Assembly (NCBI GenBank): GCA_018657495.1
Contig: JABHXA010000001.1
Location: 39,832 to 103,831 of the forward strand
Reading direction: 5' to 3'
DNA: 64,000 nt
Origin: Fidelibacterota bacterium
Lineage (GTDB): Bacteria; Fidelibacterota; Marinisomatia; SCGC-AAA003-L08; JACNLC01
The notes below the pieces were generated by a model that was not told where the DNA came from, ran no database searches, and saw nothing but the letters and a program-made list of their open reading frames with translations. A program made the translations under genes and the position numbers. Positions 1-64,000 of the stretch are shown here, in pieces (positions within the stretch are counted from its first letter, which is position 1; each line of letters starts with the position of its first letter).

Positions 1-2049
1 GGTGGCGTTCATTCAAATTCTGGCATCCCAAATAAGGCCTTTCAAATGATGGTTGAAGGAGGCCTCCATTATGGTATTGAAGTTGAACCATTTGATATGG
101 ACCTTGATATATCCAGAGGAATAGCTGCTGATATATGGCATATTTGGAACACACAGTATCTCACACCAAACGATAACTTCTTAAGCGGGGCTTTTAAAAT
201 GCTGGATGTTTGCAATGATGTTTTCTCGCAGCATCCCTATTATTTTGATACTGCTTATGCCGGATGGTTATCCGTCGGTATTGACATTTATGCTGTTGAT
301 CTTGCCCTGACCGATGAGTTGATTTTAATCTCAAACGGGGATGACGATTCAGTAATTAACCCAGGTGAGTCATTTGATTTACATCCCATGATCACAAATA
401 TTGGGGTTAATCCAGCCACAGATGTATCAGCGTCAATAAGTTGTCTGAACGAAGGTGTTAACATTCTTGAAGATGAAATGGAATACGGATATATCGGGGT
501 AGACGAATCTGCTTATCCAACAGGATCTGGATTTCAGTTTGAATTAAACGATGATATATTGATGGGAGATCCGGGATGCACAATAACTGTCTCTGCAGTG
601 AATGTTTCCGGCCAGATAGATTCATTTGAATTTCCCTTATCATTGTTTGTGTCACTTTATCAGGAAAACTGGCCTATGATTGGTGATTTCCCAGTACAAA
701 CATCACCTGCAGTAGTGCATTATCAACAGGATGAACCATATTCCGAAATTTTCTTTGGAGATAATAATGGCTCATTCTATGGTCTGTCTAATGATGGAAA
801 TATTCTGGATAACTGGCCATATGATACTGGAGATGATATATGGGGTTCTGCAGCTATTGCAGATATTGATCTTGATGGCGAGCTGGAAATTGTCATTGGC
901 TCAAAAAATAAACATCTTTATATATTCAATACCTCCGGCGACATGTTATTGAATTTAAATATTAATAAATACATCATGGCTACCCCCGCTATTGGCAATT
1001 TGGATGATGATGATGAGCTGGAAATTGTCATTGGTACTTATGGAAGTCAAACAAGCTCAAATCAAATAATCGCTATAAATCCAGACGGATCTGCAGTTGA
1101 GGGATTCCCCGTCACTATTGTAGAAAAAATTCAAAAAGGCGCAGCACTTGCTGATTTCAATGGCAATGGAAAGATGGATATCGTCGTTGGTACGGATAGC
1201 GAGAATATCTACCTGGTTTATGATGACGGCTCAATTGCACCAGGATTCCCATTTACTGATGCCGGTGGTGACTTCAGGCAGGCGCCATCAATAATAAAAA
1301 CACATAATGATGAGCTGATCATCCTTGCCGGTTCAAAGGATGATAACTTTTATGGTATCAATTCTGACGGAACCACCAGATTTACTATTGAAACCGGTGG
1401 AAATATTTCAACGTCTTGTGGTTTCTTAGATGACCCGGACCTGGGATTAATTGTTTTATTTGGTTCTGACGATGGCTATTTATACGCAGTTAATCCAGAT
1501 GGGGCTGCTATTACAGGATGGCCAATAAATCTTAATTCTCCAGTAACTTCAACACCTTCGATTGCCGATTTGAATAATGATGGAATTCCTGAAATAATTA
1601 CCGGTACTAACGCAGGAGAAATACATATTTTTGATTTATATGGAAATATATACCAGAACTTCCCATTTGATTATCAACATCCTATCTATGGGGCTCCGGC
1701 AATTTCAGACACTGATGGCGATGGTGATCTGGAAATACTGATCGGTGCTTTAGATGGAATGATCAACCTGGATATAAAGGGTGAAGGATCTGTGGATGAT
1801 TATTGGAATCTCTTTCGCGGTAGCCTTACCCGCACCGGTTATTTTGAACCATCATCTCTGGATATTCAACCTGGCGATGTAAATGATGACCAAATTGTCG
1901 ACGTCCTGGATGTTGTAATTATCATCAATTTTGTCATGGGTAATACTACACCAGATCAACATCAGTTTGAAGCCAGTGATTTGAATGAAGATGGCATAAT
2001 TGATATTCTGGATATTGTCATGCTCATAGCAATTATCATGGGATCCTGA
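1..2049 (+). CDS. Secreted multidomain protein, 5'-truncated by the window edge: end of an M4 (thermolysin-like) peptidase domain + FG-GAP/VCBS repeats + C-terminal dockerin
   Basis: Frame 1 is open from nt 1 (GGVHSNSGIPNKAFQ matches the thermolysin-family GGVHxNSGIxNKA motif) and is continuous with the 46..2049 ORF. Repeats include DLDGELEIVIGS, DDDDELEIVIGT, DFNGNGKMDIVVGT, DLNNDGIPEIITGT and DTDGDGDLEILIGA. The last ~60 aa carry a duplicated Ca-binding segment (GDVNDDQIVDVLDVV / SDLNEDGIIDILDIV) typical of dockerins. TGA stop at 2047-2049. Confidence 0.8.
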   Translation, partial: GGVHSNSGIPNKAFQMMVEGGLHYGIEVEPFDMDLDISRGIAADIWHIWNTQYLTPNDNFLSGAFKMLDVCNDVFSQHPYYFDTAYAGWLSVGIDIYAVDLALTDELILISNGDDDSVINPGESFDLHPMITNIGVNPATDVSASISCLNEGVNILEDEMEYGYIGVDESAYPTGSGFQFELNDDILMGDPGCTITVSAVNVSGQIDSFEFPLSLFVSLYQENWPMIGDFPVQTSPAVVHYQQDEPYSEIFFGDNNGSFYGLSNDGNILDNWPYDTGDDIWGSAAIADIDLDGELEIVIGSKNKHLYIFNTSGDMLLNLNINKYIMATPAIGNLDDDDELEIVIGTYGSQTSSNQIIAINPDGSAVEGFPVTIVEKIQKGAALADFNGNGKMDIVVGTDSENIYLVYDDGSIAPGFPFTDAGGDFRQAPSIIKTHNDELIILAGSKDDNFYGINSDGTTRFTIETGGNISTSCGFLDDPDLGLIVLFGSDDGYLYAVNPDGAAITGWPINLNSPVTSTPSIADLNNDGIPEIITGTNAGEIHIFDLYGNIYQNFPFDYQHPIYGAPAISDTDGDGDLEILIGALDGMINLDIKGEGSVDDYWNLFRGSLTRTGYFEPSSLDIQPGDVNDDQIVDVLDVVIIINFVMGNTTPDQHQFEASDLNEDGIIDILDIVMLIAIIMGS

Positions 2050-12578: not shown

Positions 12579-13319
12579 ATGATTAGTATGAACAAACTTT
12601 TCTGGGGAGGACTTGGTTGGGCTGTATTTGGTCCTATTGGTGGTATCCTCGGGTATGTAATGGCATCTGATGATATAAAAACAGCTCGATCTCGCCCATC
12701 ATCAGGAATTTTTTCAGGTGGTCCCAAAACAACTACTCGGGCAGGGGATTTTGGTTTATCCATGCTTGTATTATTTGCTGCAGTAATGAAAGCAGATGGT
12801 CAGGTTTTAAAATCTGAGTTAGAATTTGTAAAGCAGTTTTTTATCAAACAGTTTGGTTCTACTTATGCAAAAGAACGTATTGCATTATTTCAGGATATTC
12901 TTAAACAGGAATATCCCCTTAGAGATGTTTGCCGACAAATAAAAAGTAATATGGATCACCCCGCCCGGCTACAAATGATTCATGTTTTATTTGGTCTTTC
13001 GCAGGCTGATGGGCATGTCCATCCCAGTGAAGTGAATATCATCAGGGATATTACTGGATACCTGGGGATCAGCCAGAAAGATTTTGAATCTATCAAAGCC
13101 ATGTTCTATAAGGATACTCAATCCTCGTACACGATTTTGGAAATTGACAAAAGTGCCACAGATATTGAAGTGAAAAAAGCCTTTAGACGAATGGCAACAA
13201 AATATCATCCTGATAAAGTGAGTCATCTTGGCGAGGAGTTTCGTTCAATTGCCGAAGAAAAATTCAAAAAAGTGAATGAAGCATATCAGCAAGTCAAAAA
13301 GGAAAGAGGAATTTCCTGA
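12579..13319 (+). CDS. djlA: DjlA-like co-chaperone (TM + TerB-like domain + C-terminal J domain)
   Basis: AAGGAG RBS, N-terminal Gly-rich TM segment, and a C-terminal J domain (YTILEIDKSATDIEVKKAFRRMATKYHPDK, with the HPD tripeptide). Confidence 0.8.
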   Translation: MISMNKLFWGGLGWAVFGPIGGILGYVMASDDIKTARSRPSSGIFSGGPKTTTRAGDFGLSMLVLFAAVMKADGQVLKSELEFVKQFFIKQFGSTYAKERIALFQDILKQEYPLRDVCRQIKSNMDHPARLQMIHVLFGLSQADGHVHPSEVNIIRDITGYLGISQKDFESIKAMFYKDTQSSYTILEIDKSATDIEVKKAFRRMATKYHPDKVSHLGEEFRSIAEEKFKKVNEAYQQVKKERGIS

Positions 13320-17267: not shown

Positions 17268-17612
17268 ATGTTCAACTTATTCAAAACAAAAGAAAAATCA
17301 ACAATTTCCATTAACGATGCCAATTGGGACGAAATTATAAATTCAAATTCTGGCCCCGTGATGGTTGATATATGGGCACCCTGGTGCGGTCCATGTAAAT
17401 TAATTGGACCCATTGTTGAAGAGCTGGCTGAAGAATATAAAGGGAAAATTATTATCGGAAAATTGAATGCCGACGAAAACACCAAGTCTCGGCAGATGGG
17501 TATCCGCAGTATTCCAACCCTCTTGTTTTTTAAAGATGGGAAAAAAGTGGACCAAATAACCTGCGCTCAACCCATGAATATTATCCGTGAGAAATTCAAT
17601 AAATTAATTTGA
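17268..17612 (+). CDS. trxA: Thioredoxin
   Basis: VDIWAPWCGPCK active site, GIRSIPTLLFFKDG, 114 aa. Confidence 0.95.
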   Translation: MFNLFKTKEKSTISINDANWDEIINSNSGPVMVDIWAPWCGPCKLIGPIVEELAEEYKGKIIIGKLNADENTKSRQMGIRSIPTLLFFKDGKKVDQITCAQPMNIIREKFNKLI

Positions 17613-17648: not shown

Positions 17649-19085
17649 ATGAAGAAGTTTCTTCCTTTTATCATCCTGTTATCACTTGGCTGTGGTGGAA
17701 CCAATAACAAGATTGTCAACCAGAACCCAGATGATCTTCGCCGTTTAACAATTCTATATACAAACGATGAACATGGATGGATGCTTCGTGAAGGACAAAA
17801 CGGTGGTGCAGCTCAGTTGATGAATACCTGGATTGAGGAAGAAGGATATGTTGAAGATGGTCCCTTCTTGATTTTAAGCGGTGGTGATATGTGGACTGGT
17901 CCGGCAATATCAACATGGTTTAAGGGTGAATCTATGGTTGATGTGATGAATTCAATGAATTACGATGCTGCCGCAATCGGGAACCACGAATTTGATTTTA
18001 ATCAGTTGACGCTGCTGGAAAGATCGCAACAGGCAAACTTTCCATTATTATCTTCAAATATGAGATCAGAGAGTTCAGGCGAAATCGTCAATCCTGCTCT
18101 GCCATATATTATCAAAACCGTAAACGATATTTCAGTTGGCATTATCGGATTGACTGCAACCGAAGCAGATGATATCAATTTTCCCGAAAACGTTGCCGGT
18201 ATTGATTTTATTGACTATCAGGATGTTTTATATGAAATCGTCCCTCAAATTAAATCTGAAGGCGCTGAATTAATTATAATTGTTGGGCATATATGCAGTT
18301 TTGAGATCACCAGCCTTGTTCCTCTTGCAAAGGAACTGGGGATTGCTCTAATCGGCGGTGGACATTGTCATGAGACTGTTTCAAAAATTCAAAATGGCAT
18401 TGGTGTGATGGAAGGTGGATCATATTTGTCCGCATATGCAAAGGCCGAAATTGATTTTGATATCATTACCAACACCGTGGTGGATATAGACGTTTCTACT
18501 CATAATAATACGGGATTGACCAAAAATTCTGTTGTCGATTCAGTCATATCTATCTGGCAGGGGCAAATGGATTCGGAGCTCTCTCAGGTGATTGGTTATG
18601 TTGCACAGAATATTAGCAGCAATTCGGATGCAATGTATAATCTCATTACCGATGCATGGTTATGGTCTTATCCGAATGTGGATATCGCAATTACAAATAC
18701 CGGTGGAATCAGGGCTGATATGCCTCCAGGTGATATTACATTTGAAACCTGGGTAGGAATACTCCCATTCGAAAACTTTCTTTATGTTATTGATATCACC
18801 GGTGAGCAATTAATTCAAAATATACCCTACTATGTGATTGGCGGCATGACCACGATTCCAGAGATAATGCTCATTGATGGTACACCAATTCATCCAGATT
18901 CGGTATACTCTGTTTTAGTTACAGATTATATTTATAGTACCTCTGAATATTTTCAAACTGCTGATCCAGACCCATTAGATACTTCTATTCATTGGCGGCA
19001 ACCTGTTATCGACTGGATCCAGAGCCTGAATACAAACATCGATGATCCTCTGGATAATTATTTGGACTATGAACCACGGCAATAA
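17649..19085 (+). CDS. Lipoprotein 5'-nucleotidase / metallophosphoesterase (UshA-like)
   Basis: Lipobox LSLGCGG. Metallophosphatase motifs YTNDEHG, GGDMWTG, GNHEFD and GHCH. C-terminal 5'-nucleotidase substrate domain. Confidence 0.85.
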   Translation: MKKFLPFIILLSLGCGGTNNKIVNQNPDDLRRLTILYTNDEHGWMLREGQNGGAAQLMNTWIEEEGYVEDGPFLILSGGDMWTGPAISTWFKGESMVDVMNSMNYDAAAIGNHEFDFNQLTLLERSQQANFPLLSSNMRSESSGEIVNPALPYIIKTVNDISVGIIGLTATEADDINFPENVAGIDFIDYQDVLYEIVPQIKSEGAELIIIVGHICSFEITSLVPLAKELGIALIGGGHCHETVSKIQNGIGVMEGGSYLSAYAKAEIDFDIITNTVVDIDVSTHNNTGLTKNSVVDSVISIWQGQMDSELSQVIGYVAQNISSNSDAMYNLITDAWLWSYPNVDIAITNTGGIRADMPPGDITFETWVGILPFENFLYVIDITGEQLIQNIPYYVIGGMTTIPEIMLIDGTPIHPDSVYSVLVTDYIYSTSEYFQTADPDPLDTSIHWRQPVIDWIQSLNTNIDDPLDNYLDYEPRQ

Positions 19086-22172: not shown

Positions 22173-23210
22173 TTATGAAGCTGATTCCAGAAACTTGGTC
22201 TTTTGATCCTGAAAATATTGATAATCCGGGCTGATTTTAATGGCCTTTTCAATCGCTTCAACTGCTTCATCAATTCTCCCAAGTTTCCAGAGAACTTCTG
22301 CTTCAGTATCAATGATGTTTGCCTGGGTATCCGGTTTATCAGCAAGTAATGATACGGCGTGACGAACCTTCACCAGAGCTTCATCAAGCTGAGTCTCCAA
22401 TTCGGTCATCCGCCATGCAAAAGCATTCAAGGCGGAATAGTCATCCGGGTACTTGTTTGACCATTCGGTTAATACGATTAATTCATTTTCAGTATCTTTT
22501 TCAGAAGCATAAAATCGTGAAACTTTTGAGTATGCTTCATAAACATATTCTGAAGAAGGATAAGCCTTAATGAAAGATTCTATCGGTGCTTTATCTCCAT
22601 CATAGAATTTTTTCATGGCAAGATAATATCTGGCTCCGTTAATTTCTTCTGAGACATTTCCTGGGGAATTCACTAATAATTTTTCGTATAGTTCTGTTGC
22701 CCCATCATCATTTCCCATCTCTACATATTTACCTGCAAGTGCTGAGAGTAATTCATTGTTATTAGGGTCATTTGTCAATCTATCCTTTAAATCAGGTAGA
22801 GTGTTATTTCCGTCCAGAATGTCCTGTACACGAACGATAAAATCATCTGGTTTTCTGTATCCGATAATGCGATCAATTTCATCTTCATTATTATTGACGA
22901 AAACCATTTGGGGTACACCATTTATATTATATCTTTCAGCTATCTCTTTTCCAGGCTCTTTGCCAGCATTTATCTTTATGCTTATAAACTGTTCAGAAAA
23001 TTCAATTACATTGCCATCTGAAAATGTATCGGCATCCAGCCGAGTACACCATACTCATGTATCAGTATAGAATTCAAGCATTACCAGGCGATTGCCTGAT
23101 GTGTTAATTGCTTCCTCAAATCCACCTTTAAACCAGCCGATTGAAGAGGGCGCTTCGCTACAAGATATCAACAGAAAGAGTAAACTGCTGAATAATAAAC
23201 CTTTTTTCAT
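22173..23210 (-). CDS. Candidate selenoprotein: thioredoxin-fold (UxxC) + TPR lipoprotein, read through an in-frame TGA at 23057..23055
   Basis: ORFs 23055..23318 and 22173..22907 share one frame and are separated by one TGA only. The joined sequence ...RLVMLEFYTDT-U-VWCTRLDADTFSDGNVIEFSEQFISIKINAGKEPGKEIAERYNINGVPQMVFV... matches the FYxDWCGWCK thioredoxin-like layout, with TGA at the first Cys. Start ATG 23210 (MKKGLLFSSLLFLLISC lipobox) is preceded by AGGAG. The C-terminal ~190 aa are TPR-like. Confidence 0.7.
23025..23048 (-). promoter_or_regulatory. Candidate bacterial selenocysteine insertion sequence (SECIS) hairpin downstream of the in-frame UGA
   Basis: RNA: UGA GUAUGG [UGUA C UCGGC UGGAU GCCGA UACA]. 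It has a 9-bp stem (4+5) with a bulged C and a 5-nt loop UGGAU. The stem starts 6 nt after the UGA, and the loop is ~16 nt downstream. Confidence 0.5.
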
Positions 23211-23394
23211 AAAAACTCCTGTTATTTTAGTCCGAAACTTAAATATTAATTGTTTCATTACCGAATTGAAATATTTACTTTGTCGTGCATCTGATATTTT
23301 ATTCCGCATCAGCTTCATTCACAGAGCACCATTGACAATTATATATAGAAAGCTATCGAGTGTCAAACAGACAATTCTGAGCAATAATTTTCTT

Positions 23395-24956: not shown

Positions 24957-26030
24957 TTAAAAATGCTCATTATTGATGGCATCGCACAATGTTTCTATAT
25001 CTTTAATACTATGCGCCGCAAAATTTGCGATTCTAATTTGATCCATTTTATACTTGCCATAACCAAACCCAACCTGCATTCCTTCTGTCATCAATTTTGA
25101 AACGATTCGTTGCGAACCACCCTTCACACTTATTGTACTTACCGATGGCGATTGAAATTTTTCAAGCCCCACAAACATCGATAAATCAGGATGTGCCTGG
25201 ACCATTTTTTTTATCAAATTGAATTTATGCATGGTTTCAGCCCTGATCTTGTCAATCCCCACTGCAATCATATCGTGGATAATTTTTCCTAATAGATATA
25301 TTCCAATTACATTGGGAGTTTCAGGGGTTTGATATTTGCTTCCATATTTATACCAGCTTGAGATGCTGTGATATCGTTCGTCATCTCCGAGGTCATCGGC
25401 GGTTAAGACATCCTGCAGGAAGGTATTTTTCATCAACAGAACACCAAGACCTGATGGTAGACCAAATCCCTTTTGTACTGAGAAAAAGGCGCAGTCTACA
25501 GCAGCAGCGTTAAAGGGAATTACCGGTATCGACGAGACCACATCCAGAATGATTTTCAATTTGGGAGATTTTAATTTTACTGATTCTATAAAGGACAGTG
25601 GTGTAATCACTCCTGTGCTGGTTTCATTATGAGTCAGACACAAGACATCTGCATGTCCAGGGATTTCTTCCATTGGCATGTCAAATCCTTTACCGTCTTT
25701 TCTGAAAAATATGGTTGTGTCCAGGTTTTCTGCCCTGGCGATTTGATAGAAACGTTTAGAAAATGCCCCGTTTACCAAATGAACACTATGTTTGACCAGC
25801 CTGATTTGAAGAACTCGCTCCATCATCTCAGTCGCCGATCCACCAAAAAAAACAGTATATTGATCATTCAAATTTAGAAGTTCATCCAAACCATCCACGA
25901 CCGCTTTGTGGATTTCCTTATATTGATCACTTCGATGTGAGATGGATGTTATATCCAAATCCAATGCGGTGTTTATATGTTTTTTCACAGTTGGATATAA
26001 TTGTGAAGGGCCGGGAGTGAAGAATAACAC
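24957..26030 (-). CDS. Class V aminotransferase, probable phosphoserine aminotransferase
   Basis: GTG start overlapping the serA stop by 1 nt. N-terminal FTPGPSQL. PLP-lysine context FFSVQKGFGLPSGLG. Located immediately downstream of serA. Confidence 0.75.
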   Translation of the reverse strand: MLFFTPGPSQLYPTVKKHINTALDLDITSISHRSDQYKEIHKAVVDGLDELLNLNDQYTVFFGGSATEMMERVLQIRLVKHSVHLVNGAFSKRFYQIARAENLDTTIFFRKDGKGFDMPMEEIPGHADVLCLTHNETSTGVITPLSFIESVKLKSPKLKIILDVVSSIPVIPFNAAAVDCAFFSVQKGFGLPSGLGVLLMKNTFLQDVLTADDLGDDERYHSISSWYKYGSKYQTPETPNVIGIYLLGKIIHDMIAVGIDKIRAETMHKFNLIKKMVQAHPDLSMFVGLEKFQSPSVSTISVKGGSQRIVSKLMTEGMQVGFGYGKYKMDQIRIANFAAHSIKDIETLCDAINNEHF

Positions 26031-27256
26031 TAATACAATATCCTAAAACGAATGCTGTGTTTTACACCTGCCAATTCAGTAATTACCGATCGATTATACT
26101 TTTTGCTGATATCCGTAATTACGTATCCAATATTATCTTTTGTTTTTAGATATTGACCAACGATATTCAAATTGTTCTCGCCCATGATCCTATTTATTTC
26201 GGCGAGGACACCAGGTTCATTTTGATGAACATGAATAAGTCTATGAGCATTTTCAGCAGGCGACAAATTTATTTGTGGAAAATTCACACTCATAAACGAA
26301 TTCCCAGTATTCATGTACTGAATGATATTTTGCGGGACAAATTTGGCGATATTCATTTGCGCTTCTTCGGTACTGCCGCCAATATGCGGTGTAAGAATTA
26401 CATTGGGCAGATTTTGAAGCTCTGATTGAAACGGATCTGAATTTGATGATGGTTCTTCAGGATACACATCTATTGCGGCCCCGGTAATTTTACCTGATTT
26501 TAATGCTTTTACCACTGCAGGAATATCAAGTACAAAACCTCTGCTGAGGTTTAATATCCGAGAGCCCTGTTTCATCCAGCCAATTTCTTTTTCACCAATT
26601 AAATTATGATTTGATTGTTCACCATCAACATGGATTGAGACAACATCAGATTTCTCAAGCAATTCTTTCAATGTTGAACATTTTCGGGTGTTACCAAGAG
26701 ATAACTTCTCTACAATATCAAAATAATAAACGGACATACCAAAAGCTTCCGCAAGTATGGATAACTGTGAACCAATGTTTCCATAACCTACAATCCCAAG
26801 AGATTTTCCCCTGATTTCGTGATTATATGATGCAGATTTATTCCAAATTCCACGGTGCATATCTTGATTTTTGCTCCAGATATTTCTTACCAACAGGATA
26901 ATTTCAGCCATCGCCAATTCCACAACACTTCTAGTATTGCTGTATGGAGCATTAAATACGGCAACACCATGATCGGCACAAGCTTTCAGGTCGATCTGGT
27001 TTGTACCAATGCAAAAGGCACCAATAGCCCATAGCTTTTTTGACTCTTGCAGGACCCGTCTGGTGATTTTTGTCCGGGATCTTAGCCCTAAAATTCTTAC
27101 ATCCTTCAAATTTGTAATTATTTCTGCTTCGGATAATGAACCGGCAATACTTTTAACAGGATATCCTTCGTCCTTGAATTTTGAAGATGCTGAGGAATGG
27201 ATATTTTCCAGCAATAGGGTTTTGATTTTATTCTTAGGGAAGGAAGTGTTGATCAC
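26030..27256 (-). CDS. serA: D-3-phosphoglycerate dehydrogenase with C-terminal ACT domain
   Basis: NAD-binding GIVGYGNIGSQLS, catalytic region LTPHIGGSTEEAQ, ~408 aa with an ACT-like C-terminus (HRLIHVHQNEPGVLAEIN). Confidence 0.9.
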   Translation of the reverse strand: MINTSFPKNKIKTLLLENIHSSASSKFKDEGYPVKSIAGSLSEAEIITNLKDVRILGLRSRTKITRRVLQESKKLWAIGAFCIGTNQIDLKACADHGVAVFNAPYSNTRSVVELAMAEIILLVRNIWSKNQDMHRGIWNKSASYNHEIRGKSLGIVGYGNIGSQLSILAEAFGMSVYYFDIVEKLSLGNTRKCSTLKELLEKSDVVSIHVDGEQSNHNLIGEKEIGWMKQGSRILNLSRGFVLDIPAVVKALKSGKITGAAIDVYPEEPSSNSDPFQSELQNLPNVILTPHIGGSTEEAQMNIAKFVPQNIIQYMNTGNSFMSVNFPQINLSPAENAHRLIHVHQNEPGVLAEINRIMGENNLNIVGQYLKTKDNIGYVITDISKKYNRSVITELAGVKHSIRFRILY

Positions 27257-27274: not shown

Positions 27275-27769
27275 CTAATTCAGATTCTCAAATAGACCCA
27301 GTTTGGTGTTTTTTCGAACATTATCCCAATTAAAGCAATTGCCATTCATTGCTACAAAAACTCCAGATGGAAGGGTCTGTACAAATGATAGAGCACTGCC
27401 AAGATTGAATAGTCCGTCTGAACTGCCAAATTTAAATGGTATCATAGCACCGGTGAGGATAATCGTTTTATCCATATTTGCTTCACCAAGACATTTGGCC
27501 GTTTCAACAAGAGTGTCAGTTCCATGAGTGATGATGATCTGCTTCTGAGGAATTTCCAGACATCTTTCAATGATATAAGACCGTTGGCTATCGGTCATCT
27601 CCATGCTGTCAGCCATCATAAGGGTTTCAATATCTGTATCTAAATGACAGCGACCTTTTTCAAGCATCTCATATAAATGTGTTTTTTTAAAATACAGACG
27701 ACCAGTCAGTTCATTATATTCCTTATCAAATGTCCCGCCGGTGATGAATATTTTTATGTGTGGTATCAT
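27275..27769 (-). CDS. Short asparaginase-family protein (N-terminal domain only)
   Basis: IFITGGTFDK (TGGT motif) and ITHGTDTL (HGTDT motif) of the L-asparaginase/GatD N-domain. Only 164 aa. Confidence 0.7.
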   Translation of the reverse strand: MIPHIKIFITGGTFDKEYNELTGRLYFKKTHLYEMLEKGRCHLDTDIETLMMADSMEMTDSQRSYIIERCLEIPQKQIIITHGTDTLVETAKCLGEANMDKTIILTGAMIPFKFGSSDGLFNLGSALSFVQTLPSGVFVAMNGNCFNWDNVRKNTKLGLFENLN

Positions 27770-61367: not shown

Positions 61368-64000
61368 CTATTTCAGCATAACCATTTTCTTTGTGTCATT
61401 AAATCCATTACCATTTAAAGTATAGATATAGAGACCTGCAGAAACTTCGCTTCCATTGGCATCTTTACCATCCCAAAGAATGCTATGATAACCCTGAGTG
61501 ATGAATTGACCACTAACTAAGGTTCTAATCTGCCGACCAGTAATATCAAATACTGTGAGGCTGATTTTCATATCTGCCGGAATGGTGAAATCTATGGTTG
61601 TGCTTGGATTGAATGGATTAGGATAATTCTGACCCAATTCAAATGTAGTTGGAATCGCATCACCATTTGTAACAACTATGGATCCAGAAGTAAGAGGATT
61701 CATACCAAACCAATTATTATCCAAATCAGCATTGACATACAGTTCTCTATTCTGATTTTGGCTCCATACTCTTAATTCTATTGGATCGCCAGTTTCAAAA
61801 CCAGGTAGTTCAAAACCGTATTCATCAAATGCTTTCCATGCTGCAATTACTAATGGTTTGTTCGCATCAATAATTCTGGTGGCACCAACAACTTCGCCAT
61901 AGGCATATACTGCAACTTCATCACCGGCTTCAATCATTCCATCCATTTCAGTAAGGATTATTGCATAAGCATCACCTGTCTGAACTATATCATATTGCTG
62001 TGATTGGCTGTCCAACTTGTATTGTTCACCAAACTCGTTGTCAGATAATCTGGCACCATTGGCAAGACCTCCACCCATTGGATAGACAAAATCTACCGGA
62101 TTAGGTCCATTCACGAATACTTCATATCCTTCACCAGGTTCGAGATCGGTGAGGGTAAAGATATTCAATGATGGTACATAGAATCCACCTGAATCATCAC
62201 TAATGATTAGGATATCATCGTGATAGCTTCCAAATGCGTCCATGGCTGACATACCTACGGAGAATGGATATCCAAACATGTTTTTCATGAATGGAGACCA
62301 TCCATAAACAGAACCAGCATCCATCATTGGACCTGTCACAGAAACAGTAACTGGTGATTGTCCATTAACAAATACTTTATATCCTTCTGTATTTGATAAA
62401 GTCCCGATACCATCGATGCCATATGCAGGTACATAGAAGTTGCCACTATCATCAGATGCTATGAGGAAATCATCTCCAAGTACAGTATCTGTGCTCATAT
62501 CTTCCGCAGTCACATAGAATGAAATCATATTATTCATAAATGGATTCACAACAATATCCTGTGTTTCTTCACCAGCATCAAATGGATTGGTGAATACAGC
62601 ACATTCAGTTGCGGTGAAATATGGCGATCCTGTTTCGTCTGATACAATTGCTGATGTGAAACAGACATCCGTTTCAGAATCATCAGGAGCATTAACATTC
62701 ATGGTAACGGTGACAACGGCTCCAGAACCGGCAGAAATCACAGATCCATTGAATGAGAATCCAAGGATTCTGAAATTCCCATCCAGTTCACTTCCAGTGA
62801 TATTCCATCCATCTGGTAATCTTGGTGTGCCAGCAGCAGAAGCAAACGAATAATAATCAGGTAAATCCTGAATATCCATCTGGAATCCAGCAACCTGATC
62901 GGTATTATTCATGTGTACTTCAAATGTATTATCTGTAGTCTGAACTAATGAAAGCATGACATCGGGTAATCCGACTTCAATGGTTCCAACATTTGATGTA
63001 TAGAACATGCTTTGTCCGATTTCATTGGAGAATACAGACAGTTCAGGATTCATAAATAATTCGGCAGTACCATTTGGTGCATCTTCATTTACTTGATACG
63101 TAACCGTGAATAATTCCCCTGCACCTGGTTCGATTGGAACCAATGTGAGGCTAAACCAAAGGGCGGTAAGCTCACCATTATTGTCGCTGAAACTAAAGAA
63201 TGCTGGTTCAGGTATTCGACCAGAAGGAACAACGTCAACAGCTGTTACAGATTCTGGTAGATCACCCAGGTGCAATTCAAATCCATAAATAGGATCGTCA
63301 TTATCAATATCAACATAGATATCGACCATACCACCCTGATCAACAGCCTCTGTTGCGCTGGAGATCATCACTTCGATACCATCTGGTACTAATGTGACTG
63401 TTCCGCAGCCGGGGGTAACACCATAACCAATACCATTTTCATCAGAAATAACTTCATTGGCAGTACATAGTGAGACTTCAGCAGGTTGTCCAACCATGGT
63501 AGTGCTGAAGGTAATTTCAAAGATCGAGCCTTCTCCTGCAGCAATGGTTGTACCTGTGAATGAGAAGCCAAGAATTCTAGAAACACCATCATTCATCTCA
63601 GAGGTTGAAAGTGCCCAGTCTCCTGGTACCCTGGCAGAACCTTCTACAGAGTCAATCACCAGATAATCAGGTACATCAATTAGATCAACCTGAACACCGC
63701 CAACGAGACCGTCATTGGTCATTGAAAGTGTGACCGTAACATTTTCGCCGGCATTTGCAGTAGCATCAGATAATGACATCAAGACAGAGCCCATAGGTGT
63801 TGCAGATGCTTCGTTTGAATCTTGTGATTCAACACCACCAGAGTAAAGCGCTGTAACCACATAATAGTATGTGGTGCCATTTGTTACACCTGTATCTGTG
63901 TATTCAGTAACAGAAGGGTCAGTAGTTTCAATAACCGAGTAACCGGAGCCTGAAACCAGAGAGCGATAGACATTGTACCCTGTGAGATCACGGGTATTAC
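61368..64000 (-). CDS. Large surface protein, 5'-truncated by the window edge: FN3-like end + 3 cohesin-like modules + tandem beta-domains + T9SS type-A C-terminal sorting domain
   Basis: The frame stays open upstream of the GTG at 63860 to nt 64000 (...TGVTNGTTYYYVVTALYSGG, an FN3-type end). Three ~130-aa modules share the pattern (V/I)xLSL...G..V.V......V.G(V/F)Q(V/M)D(L/I).D(V/L)PDY...GFSF.G..I.AG.G. Two tandem repeats follow (FLIASDDSGNFYVPAYGI / ILIISDDSGGFYVPSLNI). The C-terminus NYPNPFNPSTTIDFTIP...LTVFDITGRQIRTL...GYHSILWDGKDANGSEVSAGLYIYTL matches the T9SS sorting domain. Confidence 0.8.
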   Translation of the reverse strand, partial: NTRDLTGYNVYRSLVSGSGYSVIETTDPSVTEYTDTGVTNGTTYYYVVTALYSGGVESQDSNEASATPMGSVLMSLSDATANAGENVTVTLSMTNDGLVGGVQVDLIDVPDYLVIDSVEGSARVPGDWALSTSEMNDGVSRILGFSFTGTTIAAGEGSIFEITFSTTMVGQPAEVSLCTANEVISDENGIGYGVTPGCGTVTLVPDGIEVMISSATEAVDQGGMVDIYVDIDNDDPIYGFELHLGDLPESVTAVDVVPSGRIPEPAFFSFSDNNGELTALWFSLTLVPIEPGAGELFTVTYQVNEDAPNGTAELFMNPELSVFSNEIGQSMFYTSNVGTIEVGLPDVMLSLVQTTDNTFEVHMNNTDQVAGFQMDIQDLPDYYSFASAAGTPRLPDGWNITGSELDGNFRILGFSFNGSVISAGSGAVVTVTMNVNAPDDSETDVCFTSAIVSDETGSPYFTATECAVFTNPFDAGEETQDIVVNPFMNNMISFYVTAEDMSTDTVLGDDFLIASDDSGNFYVPAYGIDGIGTLSNTEGYKVFVNGQSPVTVSVTGPMMDAGSVYGWSPFMKNMFGYPFSVGMSAMDAFGSYHDDILIISDDSGGFYVPSLNIFTLTDLEPGEGYEVFVNGPNPVDFVYPMGGGLANGARLSDNEFGEQYKLDSQSQQYDIVQTGDAYAIILTEMDGMIEAGDEVAVYAYGEVVGATRIIDANKPLVIAAWKAFDEYGFELPGFETGDPIELRVWSQNQNRELYVNADLDNNWFGMNPLTSGSIVVTNGDAIPTTFELGQNYPNPFNPSTTIDFTIPADMKISLTVFDITGRQIRTLVSGQFITQGYHSILWDGKDANGSEVSAGLYIYTLNGNGFNDTKKMVMLK

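Follow-up and report, generated by a model that had tools for sequence, protein, structure and literature searches.

A candidate selenoprotein joining an exported thioredoxin fold to tetratricopeptide repeats in Marinimicrobia and Fidelibacterota

Introduction

Selenoproteins with a UxxC motif in a PF13098 or cd02953 thioredoxin (Trx) domain, where U is selenocysteine (Sec), are an accepted class, known since 2004-2008 (PMC13188914; PMC2398784). The "Thiol:disulfide interchange protein" family, a PF13098 UxxC family (Kryukov & Gladyshev 2004) with the representative WP_011366075.1, is listed in Table 1 of PMC13188914. The Global Ocean Sampling (GOS) survey contains "Trx-like 2" (cd02953, that is, DsbD-gamma, UxxC), with 22 Sec sequences, and the marine-enriched "Trx-like 3", with 212 Sec versus 183 Cys sequences (PMC2398784, Table 2). 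Here we describe a gene on the minus strand of a 64-kb stretch of a Fidelibacterota contig (JABHXA010000001.1, positions 39,832 to 103,831; hereafter, the window). The evidence gives us high confidence that 23210..22173 is a single gene for an exported selenoprotein with Sec at codon 52. A first-pass annotation of the window had nominated this locus as a candidate selenoprotein and had noted that Sec-containing thioredoxin-fold proteins are known as a class from marine metagenome surveys, which the GOS "Trx-like 2" and "Trx-like 3" entries bear out.

The window protein resembles the PF13098 UxxC family and GOS Trx-like 2 and 3 in its Pfam domain, its DsbD-gamma-type similarity, the N-terminal position of Sec and its marine distribution. 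Its family also shows an excess of Sec over Cys forms (62 versus 18) that recalls Trx-like 3. These described families are domain-level entries, and no TPR (tetratricopeptide repeat) domain, lipoprotein or Marinimicrobia is mentioned in PMC13188914 or PMC2398784. The gene may well have been counted already, at the read level, under the GOS Trx-like entries. The lipoprotein architecture combining Trx and TPR domains was absent from the 2026 catalogue of 119 prokaryotic selenoprotein families, from the GOS survey and from NCBIfam. In the literature library that was searched, we found no description of Trx-TPR selenoproteins and nothing linking Marinimicrobia (SAR406) to selenoproteins save an "orphan SelD" table (PMC5029168). 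What is newly recognized is thus the family with its architecture and lineage; the decoding and the chemistry are standard.

A single in-frame TGA interrupts one gene

Read from the ATG at 23210 to the TAA at 22175..22173, the frame contains a single in-frame TGA (23057..23055), and the 49 codons from this TGA to the Met at 22907 are open. Re-reading the sequence confirmed what had been reported at first pass, namely that one TGA joins two open reading frames (ORFs) in the same frame. The joined product reads MKKGLLFSSLLFLLISC...LVMLEFYTDT-[TGA]-VWCTRLDADTF..., followed by helical repeats. The features of the gene are as follows:

22173..23210, minus strand: very probable selenoprotein gene, 345 codons plus the TAA stop (22175..22173); open translation save one TGA
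23216..23220, minus strand: Shine-Dalgarno-like AGGAG, 5 nt before the ATG at 23210; read from the sequence
23055..23057, minus strand: predicted UGA selenocysteine codon, codon 52; TGA or a Cys codon in 80 aligned genomes
23046..23057, minus strand: redox motif U-V-W-C, codons 52-55; aligns with CGPC of 2kuc and CxWC of full-length homologs

Although the mechanically called upstream ORF begins at 23318, the Met at 23210 is where the homologs and the independent gene calls begin, and independent gene callers pick the equivalent Met as the start of the N-terminal fragment in related contigs. The start chosen in the first-pass annotation, with its AGGAG ribosome-binding site, is therefore retained. 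In a search against Protein Data Bank (PDB) sequences, the TGA corresponded to the first Cys of CGPC in 2kuc, and Pfam Thioredoxin_2 covered the junction when Cys was set at the TGA (residues 40-124, E 3.7e-12). Both alignments agree with the earlier placement of the TGA on the attacking Cys of CxxC. Matches from tblastn in related genomes reached residues 1-345, crossing the TGA.

The TGA is conserved or exchanged for Cys across the phylum

A one-genome-per-species scan found 345 relatives, and we analyzed the best 80 of the 345 loci, almost all of which belong to metagenome-assembled genomes of Marinimicrobia / Neomarinimicrobiota / Fidelibacterota. The site could be aligned in 80 genomes, comprising the window and 79 species-level genomes; one further locus ends at a contig edge before the site. 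The codon is TGA in 62 of these genomes (61 loci and the window) and TGT or TGC in the other 18, a recurrence far beyond chance. Each TGA-type gene contains exactly one in-frame TGA and no other stop, and the TGA is shared at 33-61% protein identity among the aligned genomes. The TGA form is also present in the Fidelibacterota chromosomes CP070656.1 and CP070638.1 (loci L050 and L075).

Protein searches returned two classes of relatives. Those of the first class are full length (346-414 aa, 93-100% query coverage) and run uninterrupted through the junction with C-x-W-C at the site, a continuity the first-pass annotation had proposed as a check on its reading. The second class consists of many entries of 240-297 aa that start just past the site (e.g., "MWCSRLDADT" and "MRLDADT"). 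Six contigs from six different samples (JGI, ENA and Logan), with 87-100% nucleotide identity to the window gene, all carry the TGA, and gene calls on these near-identical contigs show the same split into 51 aa and 278 aa. Serving as a stand-in for raw reads, these six independent assemblies also speak against the TGA being an error. Together, the conserved TGA or Cys codon and the division of the gene in public annotations uphold the earlier proposal of one 345-codon selenoprotein gene that ORF callers split.

Selection on the frame was assessed by the ratio of nonsynonymous to synonymous substitution rates (dN/dS) among close relatives. This ratio was 0.03-0.08 for the 51 codons upstream of the TGA and 0.11 downstream. 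Because of the low upstream values, we conclude that these 51 codons are translated in the same frame.

On a neighbor-joining tree, Sec forms are mixed among Cys forms, and at least 11 switches are needed to account for their distribution. Interspersed switching of this kind is the usual pattern of selenoprotein families. The dipeptide inside UxxC is variable among the Sec forms (SW, GW, GG, GS, GA, PA, PG, PW, TW and VW, among others), and Trp occupies position +2 in 36/62 Sec forms versus 18/18 Cys forms, which hints that Sec relaxes constraint on the active-site dipeptide. Three loci carry other taxon labels (L029, Gammaproteobacteria; L037 and L078, Lentisphaeria), and their genes nest among those of Marinimicrobia; these labels probably reflect mis-binning or mislabelling. 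Across the phylum Marinimicrobia/Fidelibacterota, the gene is a general feature in which Sec and Cys have often been exchanged.

A covarying SECIS-like hairpin follows the UGA

The first-pass annotation had pointed to 23000-23060 as the place to look for a selenocysteine insertion sequence (SECIS). A covarying hairpin was found there, with its upper stem at 23043..23029:

23023..23050, minus strand: SECIS-like hairpin within the coding sequence; from fold, covariation and fdhF geometry
23050..23045 / 23028..23023, minus strand: lower stem; from fold
23044, minus strand: bulged C; from fold
23043..23039 / 23033..23029, minus strand: upper stem, UCGGC/GCCGA; from fold
23038..23034, minus strand: apical loop, UGGAU; from fold

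Over the 41-nt stretch from the UGA, the minimum free energy (MFE) is -13.9 kcal/mol (z -2.6). The spacer from the UGA to the upper helix is 11 nt, the loop begins 16 nt past the UGA, and the hairpin overlaps the codons for C-T-R-L-D-A-D-T.

To examine covariation, we aligned the 62 TGA-type sequences in codon register and without gaps (alignment A2). The loop bases U-G-G-A are invariant in all 62, and the four core pairs (CGGC/GCCG) form in 100/100/100/98% of them. RNAalifold independently predicted the same four-pair core, with 1/248 cells broken. Compensatory double changes occur in 4/4 core pairs (CAGC/GCUG, CGAC/GUCG, CUGC/GCAG, CGGU/ACCG and UUGC/GCAA). A model with 11 pairs had 84% of its cells paired, compared with 25-50% when partners were slid, and 0/500 shuffles reached the observed covariation score.

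The 18 Cys-type genes encode the same R-L-D-A peptide, but in these genes the core pairs form in only 83/39/39/56% of sequences. Codon choice differs correspondingly: Leu+6 is CTG in 61/62 Sec-type versus 8/18 Cys-type genes, Arg+5 is CGG in 50/62 versus 4/18, and Ala+8 is GCC in 44/62 versus 4/18. Bulk MFE over 63 nt hardly separates the two forms (-13.8 kcal/mol for Sec versus -12.5 kcal/mol for Cys). The signal that discriminates Sec from Cys genes is the specific hairpin and not overall stability. Two Cys-type loci, L057 (Cys codon ~3151) and L067 (~3124), keep the CGGCUGGAUGCCG hairpin and nest in Sec clades; both have the look of a recent change from Sec to Cys that left a "fossil" SECIS behind.

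Bacterial SECIS elements are said, in criteria ascribed to Zhang and Gladyshev in 2005, to comprise a 3' stem-loop with its apical loop ~16-37 nt off and a conserved G in the loop. The window hairpin agrees with these criteria in its position directly 3' of the UGA, its loop distance and its invariant loop G. For comparison, we folded alongside it the SECIS of Escherichia coli fdhF, which matched at 100% inside fdhF in >5,400 genomes. Both hairpins are part of the coding sequence and begin immediately 3' of the UGA, and both have an upper helix from +15 (an 11-nt spacer) and a single 5' bulge. The GG of the apical loop is at +21/+22 in the window hairpin and at +22/+23 in fdhF. They differ in the loop, which has 5 nt (UGGAU) in the window and 4 nt (GGUC) in fdhF, and in the bulged base, which is 5 bp below the loop in the window and 3 bp below it in fdhF; the two have zero sequence similarity. 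The fdhF-type geometry is established as a requirement of SelB in E. coli, and by analogy SelB of the window organism would need the same geometry.

The predicted protein is an exported thioredoxin-TPR fusion

Three regions can be assigned in the 345-residue product:

23160..23210, minus strand: predicted signal peptide with lipobox, MKKGLLFSSLLFLLIS-C17 (Cys17 codon 23162..23160); from sequence pattern
22839..23093, minus strand: thioredoxin-fold domain of the DsbD-gamma/DsbH type, residues 40-124 by Pfam; from PF13098, profile and Foldseek
22176..22811, minus strand: C-terminal all-helical TPR domain, ~210 residues (~134-345); from Pfam and the AlphaFold (AF2) model of homolog P0014

Lipoboxes were scored as an N-terminal n-region and h-region followed by [LVI][ASTVI][GAS]C. 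The window sequence, LIS-C17, fits this bacterial lipoprotein pattern as a pattern match only, and because the signal peptide ends in a lipobox, the mature protein is predicted to be lipid-anchored outside the cytoplasm. A strict lipobox is present in 63/80 loci, 31-42 residues (mostly 33-36) before U, and most of the others are near-canonical. One subclade (L040, L042, L044, L055 and L058) has no lipobox Cys and carries a type-I signal peptide (...AQA|QQ) instead; its proteins would be soluble in the periplasm and not lipid-anchored. L047, the N-terminus of which is cut by the contig end, groups with this subclade. From these signals, the whole family is predicted to be exported.

With its U-V-W-C motif, the window protein matched PF13098 (Thioredoxin_2) at 46.9 bits, above the cutoff of 27. 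The profile built from Cys homologs matched 2kuc at E 2e-25 and DsbD-gamma at ~2e-20, and Foldseek gave target-normalized TM-scores of 0.81 for 2kuc (36% identity) and 0.68-0.75 for DsbD-gamma. The C-terminal half matched TPR_2, TPR_14 and TPR_19 in Pfam, with TPR_19 above its cutoff. The AF2 model of P0014, a Cys-type homolog (alignment A3), was of high quality, with a predicted local distance difference test score (pLDDT) of 93.3 and a predicted TM-score (pTM) of 0.82. The model shows a thioredoxin fold to ~residue 130 and then eleven helices over residues 136-345 with pLDDT >90. Within the TPR domain, the motifs NxxAWRM and DTxAExxW (N262, A265-W-R-M268, D301-T, A304-E and W308) are invariant across the family, a conservation that suggests a specific binding surface.

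Weighing other readings of the TGA

TGA is one substitution away from TGT or TGC, Cys-type homologs exist, and the window is without Sec machinery, as would be expected if the codon were a nonsense mutation or an assembly or sequencing error in a Cys codon and the locus a pseudogene or artefact. However, the same TGA recurs in 62/80 aligned genomes with no further stop in any, and it is retained by the six independent assemblies from different samples. The dN/dS of 0.03-0.08 upstream and the intact frames of TGA-bearing lineages are those of a functioning gene, and the conserved, covarying hairpin goes with TGA and not with Cys codons. We give an error or pseudogene almost no credence. A genome-wide reassignment of TGA to Trp (code 4) or Gly (code 25), in which case the residue would not be Sec, appeared to have some footing in the database proteins P0007 and P0040, which have Trp at the site. 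The DNA of both carries TGA (P0040, L081:1334-2389, NCBI GCA_001757085.1; P0007, L082:68-1150, ENA) and does not yield the database protein under code 11. Because the DNA at the site is TGA, the Trp residues are evidently artefacts of code-4 gene calling on short contigs, and we ruled out these homologs as a sign of reassignment or of a Sec-to-Trp change. Such artefacts disguise selenoproteins as full-length Trp forms. The stops of 46 Pfam-supported window genes are TGA in 19, TAA in 19 and TAG in 8. TGA is thus an ordinary stop elsewhere in the window, as had been stated at first pass, and since it ends 19/46 well-supported genes the code is not reassigned. Moreover, the 18 homologs show only Cys codons at the site, never TGG or GGN, each gene has just one in-frame TGA, and in-frame TGA codons where housekeeping genes conserve Trp or Gly were not found in the window. 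We consider reassignment next to impossible.

NCBI and JGI annotations show a 51-aa ORF and a 244-297-aa "TPR repeat protein" or "hypothetical protein", which would accord with two real genes, one for a lipopeptide of 51 residues terminated by the TGA and the other for a TPR protein from an internal start (22907 or near). Yet the open and conserved stretch of 49 codons from the TGA to Met 22907 specifies the thioredoxin-fold core, and this fold is impossible without the upstream beta-strand and the active-site residue. The called internal starts vary by genome, aligning to window residues 53 to 102, and the Cys-type orthologs are single proteins of 346-414 aa. Two genes are highly improbable on this evidence: the two halves are never separate genes, and the short entries are ORF calls from arbitrary starts past the TGA. 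On the strength of TGA conservation, dN/dS, stop usage and the artefactual nature of the Trp entries, we regard a sequence error, a pseudogene, a reassigned code and a pair of genes as effectively excluded.

Several observations weigh against an exported selenoprotein. Pfam scans of 58 ORFs found no SelA, SelB or SelD in the window. A tRNA-Sec was found neither in the window (ARAGORN) nor in loci L001-L060 (tRNA scan), and no sel gene was seen in ~0.5 Mb of related flanks, where protein-family models for sel genes were not run. Rfam, applied to the window at gathering thresholds, matched no family. The assignment as a lipoprotein comes from sequence pattern only. Gene context lends the proposed function no support: no DsbD/CcdA or cytochrome-maturation gene lies nearby in the 80 loci, where synteny is weak and mostly housekeeping. 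Finally, three SAR406 single-cell genomes have been described as "orphan SelD", with no SelA or SelB found (Peng et al. 2016, PMC5029168). These single-cell genomes are incomplete, and SelD itself does occur in SAR406 (PMC5029168, Table 1).

With these points included, residue 52 is very probably Sec at the protein level, as judged from the nucleotide data. Marinimicrobia (SAR406) are an abundant, uncultured phylum of the deep ocean and oxygen-minimum zones, and a Sec codon in 62/80 aligned genomes, nearly all of them from this phylum, is good indirect evidence that they depend on selenium. It also suggests that SAR406 genomes were given "orphan SelD" status because they are incomplete. Of 32 same-frame ORF pairs joined by TGA in the window, only that at 23057 is convincing, and a scan for TGA-joined ORFs in related flanks yielded no further selenoprotein candidate above noise.

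Comparison with described families

The Trx domain is like those of 2kuc (a putative disulphide isomerase of Bacteroides thetaiotaomicron), DsbD-gamma and Chlamydia DsbH (2ju5), all of which are extracytoplasmic and belong to reducing pathways. These three have Cys and not Sec, lack a TPR domain and have VA or GP as the active-site dipeptide, compared with xW (VW) in the window protein. In DsbD, the gamma domain sits in a three-domain membrane protein (periplasmic alpha, transmembrane beta and gamma). The window protein does not have this architecture; its similarity to NF001419 is confined to the gamma-like domain (46 bits; cutoff, 330; profile positions 475-572).

NCBIfam was queried with the window protein, two Cys homologs and relatives of the UGSC, UPGC and UGGC types. 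The queries gave only sub-threshold matches, to the Trx domain in TsoB, DsbD and DsbH, and zero matches to the selenoprotein models UGSC (NF041046), GOS_C (NF045500) and Trx7/PDZ (NF041199). The best match was TsoB (NF045694), a rhodanese/DsbD-fusion-like selenoprotein, through its C-terminal DsbD-gamma-like Trx domain (51-67 bits). These scores are far under the cutoff of 805, and the overall architecture of TsoB is entirely different; its Sec lies in a UxxxxU motif, and it corresponds to the rhodanese-like domain-containing protein in PMC13188914. The NCBIfam scores rule out membership of UGSC, GOS_C, Trx7/PDZ or TsoB. We tentatively propose, at somewhat less than even confidence, an uncatalogued family of lipid-anchored periplasmic Trx-TPR proteins, a "seleno-chaperedoxin" or isomerase, specific to Marinimicrobia/Fidelibacterota.

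Current catalogues contain no exported selenoprotein that has a TPR domain for binding clients. If our reading is right, the near-universal Sec form would show that an abundant dark-ocean phylum, formerly credited only with "orphan SelD", is a regular user of selenocysteine, and thousands of public gene models would misannotate this gene as truncated TPR proteins or as Trp-containing code-4 artefacts. A widespread ocean gene is consistently misannotated, being split, truncated or given Trp at the Sec site. Corrected annotation gives back a whole thioredoxin active site, and a curated model could be built from the family. The ~11 natural switches between Sec and Cys, two with a "fossil" SECIS, offer a comparison set for Sec preference in a periplasmic redox enzyme. 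The decoding mechanism is textbook, so the advance is incremental and not conceptual.

A periplasmic thiol-disulfide oxidoreductase is the favored function

Following the established bacterial pathway, the UGA at codon 52 would be read as Sec by SelB carrying Sec-tRNA(Sec). SelB would be recruited by the in-frame SECIS hairpin 11 nt past the UGA, the UGGAU loop of which displays the conserved GG. The product would be exported and lipidated after Sec insertion. Sec52 would then attack the disulfide or sulfenate of a substrate, leaving a mixed selenenylsulfide for Cys55 to resolve, and the client protein or redox partner would be bound by the TPR domain. A DsbD/CcdA-type electron transporter in the membrane, with its gene at another place in the genome, may recycle the enzyme. 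With moderate confidence, we consider the protein likely to act as a thiol-disulfide oxidoreductase of the periplasm (reductase or isomerase).

More specific roles rank lower, the CnoX-like holdase before cytochrome c maturation. The protein could be an equivalent of the chaperedoxin CnoX/YbbN outside the cytoplasm, acting as a holdase that stress activates and that would form protective mixed selenenylsulfide bonds with its clients. E. coli YbbN (3qou) was the top full-length Foldseek match to the AF2 model (E 1.1e-7), with the same order of N-terminal Trx fold and C-terminal TPR; TPR_19 scored above its cutoff, and an FKBP-type peptidyl-prolyl isomerase (PPIase) lipoprotein lies directly upstream in 21/80 loci. 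However, superposition on YbbN gave TM-scores of only 0.25-0.31 and a root-mean-square deviation of 22 Å, so the domain arrangement differs, and YbbN was outside the top 60 sequence-profile matches. The likeness is therefore architectural, and homology to CnoX was rejected. CnoX is cytoplasmic and works with GroEL and DnaK, both of which are absent from the periplasm. It also lacks Sec, having SxxC in E. coli, while the window protein has a signal peptide and lipobox. On balance, a CnoX-like holdase is unlikely. A selenoprotein of cytochrome c maturation, fusing a CcmG/ResA-like apocytochrome reductase (the Trx domain) to a CcmI/CycH-like chaperone (the TPR domain), is less plausible still. 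CcmG and ResA are likewise membrane-anchored, periplasmic and thioredoxin-like, and there is a weak Pfam match to the CcmH/CycH TPR domain (PF23914, 28.4 bits), also "faint" in the near-identical contigs. That score is under the cutoff of 42, though, no ccm, ccs or ccdA gene is adjacent in the 80 loci, and the Trx domain is nearest to DsbD-gamma, 2kuc and DsbH and not to the TlpA/ResA/CcmG (cd02966) group.

Gene neighborhood and other features of the window

A gene for an M3 oligoendopeptidase lies 35 nt downstream of the selenoprotein gene in the window and is likewise downstream in 10 loci. The FKBP-type PPIase lipoprotein, which has two domains, is the commonest immediate upstream neighbor (e.g., L024:2094-2927) and gives a weak hint of a periplasmic protein-folding theme. 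These two neighbors are the sole clues to function that gene context offers.

Among the same-frame ORF pairs joined by TGA, an ordinary thioredoxin gene with a TGA stop (17268-17612, plus strand) is followed by a gene for a UshA-like 5'-nucleotidase (17649-19085, plus strand). We rejected this pair as a selenoprotein candidate: it is two genes, the first closed by a true TGA stop and the second opened by an ATG after a gap of 12 codons. Elsewhere, UshA-like proteins form a known selenoprotein family; the UshA-like gene here showed no Sec site.

The window also encodes a large secreted protein with FG-GAP/beta-propeller repeats and a dockerin (46-2049, plus strand) and a large secreted protein with a cohesin and a type IX secretion system (T9SS) C-terminal sorting domain (61368-63860, minus strand). 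The modules of both are of the cellulosome type, and this pair suggests a cohesin-dockerin cell-surface assembly in the window organism. A 164-aa ORF at 27275-27769 (minus strand) holds only the N-terminal domain of an asparaginase, with no room for the C-terminal domain before the gene at 26030-27256. The gene at 12579-13319 (plus strand) joins a TerB (tellurite-resistance) domain with the J-domain of DnaJ.

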